Origin: Eledone cirrhosa | Taxonomy: Eukaryota | Length of the DNA stretch: 64,000 nucleotides | Assembly (NCBI GenBank): GCA_964016885.1 | Contig: OZ024746.1 | Span: 54,126,001 to 54,190,000 of the forward strand | Direction: 5' to 3' | Part shown: piece by piece, positions 37,653-57,031 of the stretch | How positions within the stretch are numbered: position 1 is the first letter of the stretch | How the letters are laid out: each line of letters opens with the position of its first letter | The notes under the pieces: model-generated | Told to the model about the DNA's origin: nothing | Seen by the model: the letters and a program-made list of their open reading frames with translations, nothing else | Databases searched by the model: none | Program-made: the position numbers and the translations under genes

Positions 37653-37814
37653 TAGTAATAATAATAAATTTGAAGACTAAAATCCAAAGAGGGCTCGATA
37701 AGGATAAATATATATCAAATATATAAGAAAGTAGAGCAAATATTTATTAAAATAACAGATTAAAGTTTAAGCAAGGAATCGCTGCTTTCACCCTTAACGG
37801 GATCTTCTGAAACT
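37653..37814 (-). mobile_element. Solo pseudo-LTR of the PLE at 56934-60261, with CAGAAGA hammerhead (37764-37814)
   Basis: Matches 56934-57082; (TA)n on both sides. Confidence 0.88.
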
Positions 37815-37892
37815 TAATAAATATATATATATATATATTAAATTAACAATGAAAATAATAACAAAGTCAAGTTATTTTACGTATTCATATCA

Positions 37893-38014
37893 TTGTTTAC
37901 GATCGGTTCGGATGGCTGATCATATTGACATATTGACTGATCTGTAGCAGTTATATAACTGTGTATTATCAGACATCATAAATAAGTTTGATCAGACCAT
38001 TTTCTTCAGACACA
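37893..38014 (-). ncRNA. Degenerate hammerhead motif
   Basis: CTGAAGA..atggtctgatca/tgatcagccat..GAAC-cgatcg-TA; core and stem I mutated. Confidence 0.45.
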
Positions 38015-38175
38015 AAGGGTACCACGAAGAGTAGACCACATTTAGAAAACAAATATATATTTATATACATATCCAATAGAATGCTCTGTCTGGAGCCAAA
38101 CCTTTTAGTTTCATCTCACAACTCGCAAGTATATCGTGTGTATCGGATACGAACATGGTTCGGATATACACATAA

Positions 38176-38305
38176 TTTGTTCTACATTTGGCACAAGGCC
38201 AGCAATTACTCAGTGCATTACTGGTACTTTATTTTATCGACCCCGTAAGGATGAGAGGCAAAGTTAACCTCGGTGGGATTTGAACTCAGACCGTAATGGG
38301 GCGCA
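38176..38305 (-). mobile_element. SINE family 1
   Basis: Reverse complement of the family core. Confidence 0.8.
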
Positions 38306-54100: not shown

Positions 54101-54548
54101 AGCGTGCATCTAAGATCCCGTTCCAGTCGCCCACTAACACTAAAGAGCGGGACGTTCCAAGAAAGGTCTCCAGACGCCGGAAGAAATCAGGCCGCCCTGC
54201 TCCTGTCGGGGCATAGACGGCCACTAGCCTGAAAGCTTGCCCGTCTCCGCTGGTCACGTCCAGCACCACCAGCTTACCCTCTGGGTCCAGGAAGATGGCC
54301 CGTATGGCGAGATCCAAACCTCTCCGAAAAAGCACAGCAACTCCTCCACCCGATCCAGGACGGCTGGGAGATGCGTACACATCGTAGCCGCCGAAGATCG
54401 GTGCGAAGGCCCGTGCTTCGGAGATTCTGGTCTCGCTGATGGCCACTACATCTATGTTTAGTGACCTGAGGTCGTTGAGCAGGTGACCCTGCTTCCATGA
54501 CGACCCCAAGCCACGCGCATTTATGCTGCCTATTCTGAGTGAGGTCAT
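51129..54548 (-). CDS. ORF2p APE-RT-CCHC (1139 aa)
   Basis: 9 aa differences from 6119-9538 by manual comparison. Confidence 0.96.
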   Translation of the reverse strand: MTSLRIGSINARGLGSSWKQGHLLNDLRSLNIDVVAISETRISEARAFAPIFGGYDVYASPSRPGSGGGVAVLFRRGLDLAIRAIFLDPEGKLVVLDVTSGDGQAFRLVAVYAPTGAGRPDFFRRLETFLGTSRSLVLVGDWNGILDARWDCVGLADRGGGCKSLTNLLRRFELSDRYRLDFPNVPMWTWTNRIGSSRSYLDRVFCREIDRSSIGCPQFKIVSYTDHKFVTCVLDLDRLHRRGPGYWKLNASLPARKAYRDRISELVKRALTGAIVNNKWWFALKRAIRIESIRFSKALAIEKNRAEGELVRKLDEALSKGIATDVLAAKLALDQFFNAKHEGCVVRARVRALRHEGTKAVQWARVAEARRGNKATIRSLVDHDGRMLLDPGQMCEAFQRHFAQLFGGSGGPGRGMDSSVYLDGLPRLSATEAKCCEKPITAAEVREAMTGCTRGKSPGLDGLPYELYVQMPDLFGGLLADVYCNWQQNGRIPSSVSRGAVALLRKDPNKGDNIDNFRPITLLNTEFKILAKVLAKRLALVVGGLVGEAQTCAIPDRSIHDNLHLMRYIVERVAREPGTGGSLINLDQSKAFDRVDHRYLAAVLRAAGFGPVFRGWIAAMHSDICSVVRVNGHLSEPFNIMRSVRQGCPLSSLLYVLTLEPLLHKLETLRGVPRELGCGRSVSAYADDVTVVVSNAKHIEAIGTTLREYEAVTGAMINQEKSVGLQLGTWRGRSMPSNSVVGRWTDGPVKLLGVWFGPDLQTDKNWDEVTSRVASLTQKWAERKLSLKGRAEVANAYIASVICYRLTVVPCPKPRLTALERLLFRFLWKGRAPMVRRSICCQHPLRGGLGMPWLMMRRHALRLRHLHLFLDGDQVWSPFARRVFPQLVSLTELQSWVKRRQRGSAWRLECLQALTALDQSGNVIGGNSTSAFYRGLVEGKSDDVLGETLGVDENQLANLFGRTFGPGPMDNFQKSLAWQCYRGALPVRDKLYRHGGVVSRACPRCAQGDETVLHALVQCPKIADLWVYVEHLLSRLGRIQLSSESIVRIAPPSSFSRDGQAVFICLVAMAKEIVWWTRLKGLKTSTYLFGDALIDFFKFHLKRKIRVEKEVLSSQHFVERWVREARMARVNGPTLSIYL

Positions 54549-54583
54549 GTTTAAAATAGAGTGGAAAAGATGGGAAAGACCAC

Positions 54584-56677
54584 TTACCGTACTTTTGGTA
54601 GAGGAGGGATGGTTTTTACATCCCTTTTCACTTGATCGTCTGGTGAAGGGACCGTTGAATCGTCCCTTCGGCTGGTCGTCGGCTCTTCTAAGAGAATGTC
54701 TGAGTATACTCTTCGATTGATGGTTCCTCCTAGGTCCCTGAAATCACCAACTGCGTTGGGGAATTTCGTTTTAATGTTTGTGTATTGTTTCTGTGCTATT
54801 TTTAGCAGTCTTATGTTAGTTGGCGTTTTGATTGGTGCTGGTATTATGTAGTCCTGTTGTGAAATGTCTGTGTGTTCAATTATGTAAGTCATTAGTTTCT
54901 TGTTGTGTGTATTTATTGCCGTGCATTTGTTTTTCTGGGGGTGGGGTGTGGTTCTGCTATTTTCTTGTCGTTGTTGCTGGGTGTGTGTGTTTTGTTGTTG
55001 TGTTTGCGATGTTGGTGCTTGTGGTGGTGGTGTTGAAGGTGTTGTTGGCGGTGGGGTTGTCGCCGGTGGTGATGGTGGTGCTGGTGTGGGTGGTGATGGT
55101 GTTGGTGGTGTTGCTGCTGTGGGTCTCTTTGCAGTAGACTTTACCCTTTTCTCATTTCTTTCCTCCCTTTTCAAAGGCGACGATGCGCTGCTTCTGCGTT
55201 TGTGCCTTCTTGCGACCTTTTGCCATCCCTCTCCCACCTCACACTCCATGTCTGATTCTGTAAGGTCGGGGAGGGGTACCAGCTCCACTCTTTCACTTGT
55301 TGTTGTTGGTGATGTTTGCACTGGAGTCTCTGTTGCAGCTGCATTTGGTATTGCTGTTGTTGTTGTTAATATTTCCACTGCTGCTGCTGTCTTTGATTTC
55401 CGTGGAGTGGGTATGGGTGCCACGGACCTATCGTTCCTGGTTGCCGCTTGTCCTGTTGCTGGTAGCCGTGGAGCCGGATTCGGAAGGAGGGGGGTTTTCT
55501 CCTTTCTCAGGGTCTTCTCGTTGCAGAAGGCCCTGAGGTGAGTCTTCGATCCACAGCGAAAGCATTTCGGGCGTTTGCCCTCAACACTTATGGGCAGTTG
55601 AGTGCCGTTATCGAAGTCTATCACATCCGGGATAGCTTCGATGCACTCCTGGTTGGTTTGGATTAGCATCTCAATGGAGGAGCCGACCCAATCTTCTCTT
55701 ACTTTTTTCTGTACTTGCAGTACAGTTGTTTTGTCCTCGATTCCGATTAGGACAGACGCGGCCAGCCAAGAAGGGGTCATTCCGGGGGGGACGTGGGTCA
55801 GTTTGACCCTCACAATTTTTTGCCCGCAGTAGGAGGGCACCAACACCATTTCCTCGCTCCTTAGGGTCACTACTGATTGGGCCTTTGCCTCCTGGGGTGT
55901 GGCAAAAAGTACGTCTACGGTGGCGTATTTTTTGCCTCGGGTGATGTGCGTTTTCCTCTGCCACACAGACCCCAAGGCTTTTTGTATTTGGGCCTCTGTG
56001 GCTCTTTCCACCCTACGGGATTTTGTACTTACTGTACGGTACGTGACCGTACAGTGCTCTTGGGTTTCGAAAAAATTTTTCGCTGCCTTGCAGATTGCTC
56101 GGTGTCCGTTCTTTGTCACCATCTTCTTCGCTTCCTCTAATTCCTCATTTGTTATGAGGATTGTTTCCAAGTTTTTCGCAATACCTGCAAATGAGATTGG
56201 TTTTTCTCTGCTGTTGTTGTTGTCGTCAGAGCTGCTGGTACTTTTGTTGCTACAGGTACTACGACTACTGCCTCCGCCGCTGTTGCTGTGGTTGTTGTTG
56301 GTGTTGCTGCTGCTAATGCTGTTGTTGTTTATGCTGCTGGTGATGCTGTTGCGGCTGCTACTGTTGTTTTCATTGTCACTGTTGCTGTTGTTATTACGGC
56401 TGCTACTGCTATTATTCCTGACGTCAGACGAATGAACTGGGTTTTCGTATTTCCCGCACACCTGTTTCGTCGCTGTCGTCGTCGTCGCGGAGAAACCTTG
56501 CACGCTTTGCACGAGACTTTTCTTTTCTTTCGTCGCTTGCGAAAGAGAAGGGAGGGAGAGAGACACATTTAAAGAAGGGAGGGAGAGAGACAATCTTCTC
56601 TCTGCTGTAGTGATGATTGAGGAAGAAGAAGACGGAATGAGTGGGAGTGACGTATGAAATTTCTTTTTGGTAGCCAT
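54584..56677 (-). CDS. ORF1p (697 aa)
   Basis: ATG of MATKKK at 56677; CCHC knuckle. Confidence 0.9.
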   Translation of the reverse strand: MATKKKFHTSLPLIPSSSSSIITTAERRLSLSLPSLNVSLSLPSLSQATKEKKSLVQSVQGFSATTTTATKQVCGKYENPVHSSDVRNNSSSSRNNNSNSDNENNSSSRNSITSSINNNSISSSNTNNNHSNSGGGSSRSTCSNKSTSSSDDNNNSREKPISFAGIAKNLETILITNEELEEAKKMVTKNGHRAICKAAKNFFETQEHCTVTYRTVSTKSRRVERATEAQIQKALGSVWQRKTHITRGKKYATVDVLFATPQEAKAQSVVTLRSEEMVLVPSYCGQKIVRVKLTHVPPGMTPSWLAASVLIGIEDKTTVLQVQKKVREDWVGSSIEMLIQTNQECIEAIPDVIDFDNGTQLPISVEGKRPKCFRCGSKTHLRAFCNEKTLRKEKTPLLPNPAPRLPATGQAATRNDRSVAPIPTPRKSKTAAAVEILTTTTAIPNAAATETPVQTSPTTTSERVELVPLPDLTESDMECEVGEGWQKVARRHKRRSSASSPLKREERNEKRVKSTAKRPTAATPPTPSPPTPAPPSPPATTPPPTTPSTPPPQAPTSQTQQQNTHTQQQRQENSRTTPHPQKNKCTAINTHNKKLMTYIIEHTDISQQDYIIPAPIKTPTNIRLLKIAQKQYTNIKTKFPNAVGDFRDLGGTINRRVYSDILLEEPTTSRRDDSTVPSPDDQVKRDVKTIPPLPKVR

Positions 56678-57031
56678 GTTTTTTTGTTTAAAATGAAATT
56701 TTGGGTACAAAACCCCAATAACTGGTTATTTAACCCCGAACGGCCAAATAACGGACAGAAAGACCCCTCTCACGAGGAGGAGGGTGTCTTTATCAACAAT
56801 TTGGTTCAAGTTTTAAACAATTTACAATTGTTTTAACGGTTAAAAATTACTATACCTTACAGAGCCGAGCCTCCGTCAACCATGGCATTCAATAATAATA
56901 ATAATAATAATAATAATAATAATAATAATAATAAATTTAAAGACTAAAATCCAAAGAGAGCTCGATAAGGATAAATATATATCAAATATATAAGAACCGT
57001 AGAGCAAATATTTATTAAAATAACAGATTAC

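Follow-up and report, generated by a model that had tools for sequence, protein, structure and literature searches.

The locus described here is a nest of Dong-type and Tx1-type retroelements within a Penelope-like element (PLE), contained in a window of 64,000 nucleotides of Eledone cirrhosa DNA (assembly GCA_964016885.1, contig OZ024746.1, positions 54,126,001 to 54,190,000 of the forward strand). The closest described host is the Hydra clade of PLEs (Craig et al. 2021, PMC8557442), characterized in section 11 of that source by RWK, DKT, CxCX5C, CxxC and CxH motifs, by absence of CCHH and by (TA)n insertion in almost all families; the usual PLE layout, given in its section 6, includes an inverted 5'-truncated copy by the upstream pseudo-long terminal repeat (pLTR). 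TAA is listed as the target of Dong, including in a snail, by Grandi and An (2013, PMC3812793), where Kojima and Fujiwara 2004 and Xiong and Eickbush 1993 are cited for this targeting. The same source gives TC as the target of Kibi and TTC as that of Koshi, and describes microsatellites born in retrotransposons, from Alu and L1 tails and from internal proto-microsatellites. Transposons and microsatellites are among the known targets, and Tx1 is a target-specific clade, according to PMC4640811. Dong-R4, L1-Tx1 and Penelope are among the recently active families of Octopus vulgaris in PMC13282606; the word 'nested' does not occur in that source.

The block of 8,769 bp between G48165 and 56935 (48166-56934), termed nest 2, very probably split a TAA tract belonging to the PLE itself. 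Read directly, a solo copy at 37653 has (TA)n, then G, (TAA)4 and ATTTGAAGACTAAAATCC, the sequence directly after the four TAA units being ATTTGAAGAC. The left edge of nest 2 has (TA)22 (48121-48164), G at 48165 and (TAA)15 (48166-48210); the right edge has (TAA)14 (56893-56934), then ATTTAAAGACTAAAATCC from 56935, the sequence after (TAA)14 within 56893-56944 being ATTTAAAGAC. The block exceeds the 12-bp repeat by 8,757 bp. The continuation GTAATAA is found at 2 of the 120 ends of the 60 (TA)≥8 runs in the window, those of the solo copy and the nest, so the match between the two is not due to chance. Uninterrupted TAG(TAA)4 is present at 37653-37667 and at 60086-60100. The motif at 60086 is one base shorter and without preceding (TA)n, and on the minus strand it is followed by 42 nt and then by the ATG at 60043. 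Here the repeat is enclosed by element sequence and is therefore cargo of the PLE, not target DNA.

In a first-pass annotation of the window, the solo copy was read as (TA)n-TAGT-(AAT)4 and taken for an in-window empty site. The site is as described; the count is not, the sequence being TAGT-(AAT)3-AAATTT, with four units only in the TAA phase (in the AAT phase the repeat is (AAT)3 plus AA). The solo copy, 94% identical to 56935-57090, is a paralogous copy, and its reading as an empty allele of the nest locus is abandoned. The opening of nest 2 as (TA)n-TAGT-(AAT)n and its resumption near 56934 agree with the sequence. The short motif reported at 60086 is present, flanked by element sequence on both sides and not by (TA)n.

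The host is a decayed PLE on the minus strand, extending from 60262 to 48163 and lying between (TA)22 and (TA)43 once the nest is set aside; its far end at 60262 adjoins (TA)43, not TAA. The earlier proposal of a TA-inserting PLE is borne out by these flanks and by the solo copy, also TA-flanked, with a short TA run beyond 37822. The layout consists of an inverted pLTR piece, a pLTR remnant with leader, the open reading frame (ORF) and the downstream pLTR. The ORF (60043-58031) is broken by three frameshifts (near 59675, 59550 and 58250) and by an 11-residue deletion after the reverse transcriptase (RT) core; its frames align end to end with homologues of about 700 aa through the frameshifts and the deletion. 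Relatives at E ≤ 1e-20 number 1,893 among 6,085 candidates; the homologues bear no family names. No family was assigned in a Pfam search of the ORF. The translation has a YRDDG core, RWR (for RWK), SDKTG (the DKT motif), VY...YIG near the C terminus, the linker CNCRNRVDC, corresponding to CxCX5C, and CDLC...E...N...CKH, corresponding to CxxC and CxH flanking E and N; CCHH is absent, and one Cys lies between VY and YIG. On these predicted protein motifs the PLE is filed as Hydra-type. Like the Hydra clade as described in PMC8557442, it has a C-terminal GIY-YIG domain, RWK-like and DKT motifs, the CxCX5C linker, no CCHH, CxxC and CxH, (TA)n flanks and an inverted 5'-truncated copy. It differs in the hammerhead-like core CAGAAGA (not CTGANGA), in the long 3' untranslated region (UTR) and in the TAA tract of the leader. 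A 141-bp tandem duplication is present in the 3' region at 57161-57436; reads with joints skipping or repeating 140-145 bases occur there, and the unit number varies among copies.

Nest 2 is composed of three 5'-truncated Dong-type pieces on the plus strand (A, B and C) and one full-length Tx1-type element on the minus strand, each between TAA runs, the elements being set apart by (TAA)10-26; the earlier placing of Dong and Tx1 in AAT agrees with these copies in split TAA. Fragment A, 96-97% identical to fragment C and to the full-length Dong-type copy of the window (10575-14484), is followed by (TAA)10 at 48603-48632. Fragment B, 90-92% identical to other Dong-type copies, is followed by (TAA)26 at 49258-49335, and fragment C, 98.99% identical to the full copy, by (TAA)17 at 50815-50865. 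The full copy has a single 1141-aa frame (10666-14091) with RT, CCHC and PD..D (restriction-like endonuclease) motifs; among proteins of solved structure it comes nearest to R2 (E 2.9e-30), with L1 following at E 4e-14. Five of the six pieces of the family finish in TAA-type runs on the sense strand; the sixth (2095-2245) is without its 3' end. The label Dong rests on predicted structure and on target. The pieces are like Dong (R4 clade) as described in PMC3812793 in the single ORF with RT, CCHC finger and restriction-like endonuclease motif and in TAA insertion and tail, and unlike it in that the TAA target here would come from another retroelement's end and is common to an L1-group element of opposite orientation.

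The Tx1-type element has two open frames: ORF1 (56677-54584) with a CCHC knuckle, and ORF2 (54548-51129) with apurinic-type endonuclease, RT and zf-RVT. It is 99.55% identical to the copy at 3771-9801, with 27 differences scattered along its length, and its nearest solved structure is L1 ORF2p (E 6.5e-53). The three long Tx1-type copies have (TTA)6-25 before the start and (TTA)17-20 at the end on the sense strand. Sense-strand tails in nest 2 and in a further nest of the window (nest 1) are TAA in Dong-type and TTA in Tx1-type copies, one repeat thus being used in opposite orientations. The name Tx1 is kept from the first-pass annotation and may fit, being consistent with features of the clade; none of 33 homologues bears a name by which Tx1 could be told from L1. 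L1-group membership follows from structure. Kibi and Koshi are placed in the Tx1 clade. The window element is like Kibi and Koshi as described in PMC3812793 in having endonuclease and RT, two ORFs, a position in a simple repeat and an end in that repeat, and unlike them in the repeat, which is TTA/TAA. No description of a TTA/TAA-targeting Tx1-type family was found in the literature searched, Repbase-type resources being outside the search.

Table 1. Features of the host element, of nest 2 and of the solo copy (positions in the window; a point marks features without strand).
Position	Strand	Feature
37559..37654	.	(TA)n run adjoining the 3' end of the solo copy
37653..37822	-	Solo 5'-truncated pLTR/leader fragment, TAG(TAA)4 at 37653-37667, hammerhead-like core starts at 37809
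48121..48164	.	(TA)22, putative left part of the PLE target microsatellite
48163..48210	-	Outermost 3' end of the PLE (plus-strand TAG), with (TAA)15 as left arm of the split repeat
48211..48602	+	Dong-type fragment A, 392 bp, 5'-truncated (begins at 3519 of 3910 of the full copy)
48633..49257	+	Dong-type fragment B, 625 bp, 5'-truncated, frameshifted
49336..50814	+	Dong-type fragment C, 1,479 bp, 5'-truncated, open frame
50866..56892	-	Full-length Tx1-type (L1-group) element
56893..56934	.	Right arm (TAA)14 of the split repeat, faces the Tx1 5' end
56935..58030	-	PLE 3' UTR and downstream pLTR, hammerhead-like core starts at 57077
58031..60043	-	Hydra-type PLE ORF, RT and C-terminal GIY-YIG
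60044..60138	-	Leader and upstream pLTR remnant with TAG(TAA)4 at 60086-60100
60140..60262	+	Inverted pLTR piece, hammerhead-like core at 60195, stops at the short (57008-type) end
60264..60348	.	(TA)43, putative right part of the PLE target microsatellite

The PLE, to judge by decay levels, is probably older than Tx1 and Dong C. Copies of its pLTR are 92-95% alike, whereas identity reaches 99.55% between the two Tx1 copies and 98.99% between Dong C and the full copy; the broken ORF and more diverged pLTR, set against an intact Tx1 and a near-identical Dong C, argue for this order. Reads of four runs (X1, X4, X9 and X10) were compared with 56500-57500, minus 56885-56944; two of the runs are restriction-site-associated DNA (RAD) libraries, in which reads pile at cut sites, and runs X3 and X8, with a small share or none, were left out. 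The window differs from at least 99% of the X4 contig depth at no fewer than nine sites in the 566-bp PLE part and at least one in the 393-bp Tx1 part, both counts being lower bounds among the variant rows listed (40 of 591). Within nest 2, the Dong pieces A, B and C are 90-97% alike, and the Dong pieces adjoining the two 99.55% Tx1 copies are only 95.1% alike; because of this range and of the step from 99.55% to 95.1% at the Tx1/Dong boundary, the pieces are regarded as independent insertions.

By the proposed sequence of events, the PLE, which is directly readable between its TA runs, would have inserted into (TA)n first and would have brought the leader TAA tract at its long end. The tract would then have grown to about 14 units or more by slippage or by a tail-only event. 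Four independent insertions would have followed one after another into the tract, as suggested by the structure and by the reported TAA targeting of Dong, with Dong using the TAA strand and Tx1 the TTA strand, each new tail renewing the target. The outer TAA runs, of 15 and 14 units, both lie against element 5' ends. Whichever element was first, one arm is therefore not a 3' tail, and the four units must have increased to 14 or more, either ahead of all insertions or later in one arm; the tract was probably expanded before colonisation. Of the earlier proposal that the nest grew from a four-unit AAT, the interruption of the PLE's own TAA tract is retained and the four-unit run as target is doubtful, the outer runs having 14-15 units. 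The locus is likely to be a local case of an element-borne proto-microsatellite colonised by microsatellite-associated long interspersed nuclear elements (LINEs).

Several observations weigh against this account or limit it. A four-unit target fails to explain two long outer runs facing 5' ends. Dong B is about 9% from the other copies, which may reflect an age equal to that of the PLE or membership of another subfamily; identity between paralogues mixes subfamily and age. The left junction offers one informative base (G) plus the (TA)n context. The comparison sites are paralogues, an orthologous empty allele was not seen, and within the repeats no target-site duplication is readable.

Direct insertion of Dong or Tx1 into the unexpanded four-unit tract, with later lengthening of both outer arms, would alter only the second step and is compatible with the first and third. 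Short targets may be usable, as some 5' junctions elsewhere in the window abut runs of no more than 5-6 units, (TTA)5 at 1041 and (TTA)6 at 3753; the same runs indicate that 5' junctions are not routinely lengthened, and one outer arm, derived from the target, would have at most 4 units against the actual 15 and 14. This variant is considered rather doubtful. It is quite improbable that the flanks come from two separately colonised PLE copies, joined by recombination in Dong, Tx1 or TAA sequence with loss of the intervening DNA. Such an event would draw on a PLE family that is very abundant in reads and on a left side identified by TAG alone; it requires two PLE copies of like orientation, both of them colonised, and a deletion as well, and no chimeric breakpoint is evident in Tx1, whose differences from the nest 1 copy are scattered.

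Priming of the PLE on an outer TAA run of a pre-existing nest by microhomology, with a coincidental left (TA)n-G, is conceivable in that the PLE end is TTATTA on the sense strand and could anneal to TAA. The other PLE end meets (TA)43 and not TAA, the PLE is more decayed than the adjoining Tx1, and GTAATAA follows none of the 118 remaining (TA)n ends; this order of events is very improbable. Scarcely credible is an origin of nest 2 as an inverted duplicate of part of nest 1, or as a Tx1 and Dong composite moved together. A single 6.8-kb BLAST match at 98.9% (3752-10534 vs 56911-50137) does extend across Tx1, the tail and the Dong 3' end, but the Tx1 copies are 99.55% alike and the adjoining Dong pieces 95.1%, and Dong C matches another, non-adjacent copy at 98.99%. 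Splitting of the PLE's own, probably expanded TAA tract by successive insertions is the preferred reading.

A hammerhead-like motif starts at 57077, 37809 (minus) and 60195 (plus), and the core is CAGAAGA (A at position 4) in all three pLTR copies of the window. The hammerhead descriptor permitted either T or A at position 4 of the core; it matched three sites in the window, at 37809, at 60195 and, unrelated to these, at 43954, and none in 20 shuffles; the copy at 57077 has a change in stem II and was found by the core only. Among related PLE loci (the best 80 of 501), the descriptor matched in 48 of 80 on the sense strand and in 4 of 80 on the antisense strand, the 48 relatives compared for the core having been selected for CTGANGA. 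The putative hammerhead architecture of the window PLE is at the same position as in the relatives. Rfam gave no hammerhead in the window or in 56930-57500, the 136 matches below the gathering score being mostly simple repeats, and the full three-way junction was not obtained in free folds of the pLTR motif. Core variants in passages of PMC4209133 differ from CAGAAGA. The candidate core CAGAAGA may be fixed in the family, no majority change being present among the variant rows listed.

In each of the four runs, loose ends with a (TA)n consensus accumulate at 57008-57009 (X9, 2,162 plus 464 reads; X10, 2,314; X4, 67 contigs; X1, 1 contig), and the inverted copy of the window stops at the same point. 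The most frequent read-supported end of the family is about 86 nt short of the TAA repeat, 56935-57008 being an extension that leads to the repeat; the tail given in PMC8557442 is 30-40 bp, compared with about 86 nt past the short end in the window PLE. A TAG end of the pLTR, as annotated earlier, exists in the window; it is neither the sole end nor the commonest one seen in the reads, which were compared outside 56885-56944, the stretch where ends at the TAG would lie; the most frequent loose end is that at 57008-57009. In X9, 3,611 reads pass over 56959 and 6,406 over 57031, and the summed depth of X4 at 56959 is 28%, where some of the reads over 56959 stem from internal leader copies, and neither RAD reads nor contig depths can be taken as copy counts. 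The TAA repeat can be delivered by only part of the PLE family. The distance from the core to (TA)n in 18 related loci with a TA run after the core (L011-L079, from other organisms) is 65-74 (7 loci), 84-114 (4) or 133-157 (7), with 69 and 155 in the window, which suggests two preferred 3' ends across the PLE clade. The TAA tract is about 140 nt downstream of the hammerhead-like core and reaches the 3' end only with the long end (about +155 nt), not with the short one (about +69 nt).

A second abundant repeat is common to the PLE over only 56960-57009 (50 bp). Divergence is seen before 56960 (X9, 968; X10, 1,089) and after 57009 (X9, 811; X10, 823; X4, 29; X1, 1). Beyond 57009 the diverging reads enter a GC hairpin and then CTAG, presumably in resemblance to a Helitron 3' end. 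The stretch at 56960-57009 may thus have been captured between the PLE leader and a Helitron-like element.

Against a general succession stand the flanks of related PLE loci: none of the 37 upstream flanks and none of the 65 downstream ones contains an AAT run of at least 4 units; many flanks are short, and the others of the 80 loci had flanks under 100 nt or incomplete ORF ends. The TAA seed is consequently not a clade-wide trait. (TA)≥5 is present in 21 of the 65 downstream flanks. The exact 29-nt pLTR pattern had no match in metagenome contigs or in viral contigs, and no PLE relatives were found in viral contigs. It is unlikely that an abundant TA-inserting PLE turns (TA)n into TAA pads genome-wide and that a sizeable share of Dong/Tx1 nests begin in PLE ends. 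If true genome-wide, one retroelement clade would build the niche of two others; such a succession is possible on one case and one lead, nest 1.

Hosting of one element by another has a precedent in Tx1L, which inserts into the transposon Tx1D. The window PLE is like the Alu- and L1-born microsatellites of PMC3812793 in carrying a sub-threshold repeat able to mature after insertion, and unlike them in that the matured repeat would then host repeat-associated LINEs of two clades. The parts and the principle are already known: PLEs that target TA, Dong that targets TAA, L1-group elements that target repeats, and microsatellites borne by elements; unusual is the readable three-step chain at one locus with uninterrupted paralogues as control. 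No account of a PLE-borne TAA tract colonised by Dong and Tx1 was found in the literature searched, with subscription journals and repeat databases outside the search. Taken by itself, the locus is a clean nested insertion of an ordinary kind. If the same is true of the many other copies of the family, counting them could reveal whether insertion sites of some elements are made by another element family, and how long a repeat must be before TAA-associated LINEs start using it.

Nest 1 (1041-20431) extends over 19.4 kb, in which Tx1-type and Dong-type copies sit in TTA runs, and holds an intact Tx1 (3771-9801) and the intact 1141-aa Dong-type frame (10666-14091). Its edges have no copy of the nest 2 PLE pLTR. 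Its left flank contains a hammerhead-shaped fold at 770-870, with a CTGATGA...GAAA core at 787 and a (TA)n run as stem III (z -1.72, 10 of 200 shuffles as good), and, 65 nt ahead of the first TTA run, a degenerate hammerhead core at 976; the descriptor matched neither motif. Nest 1 starts just downstream of these hammerhead-like motifs, on the same relative strand as in nest 2, and may be a second case, at the end of an unrelated PLE family; against this, TTA could be target rather than cargo.

(TA)n-flanked inverted or duplicated fragments, which look like other PLE ends, are found at 20938-21098, 33351-33643, 41233-41883, 42069-43651 and 43653-44360; one of them carries, at 43954 (minus), a hammerhead core of canonical sequence, and TAA runs are absent for 450 nt around it. 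The Tx1-type copy at 14560-20371 is about 95% identical to the others in the ORF2 region and has only about 40% protein identity in ORF1, likely as a result of a 5' module swap. A second, distant R4-like family is present at 2303-3750, bounded by TTA, with 34% protein identity to the Dong-type frame and a 226-bp repeat of its 3' end.

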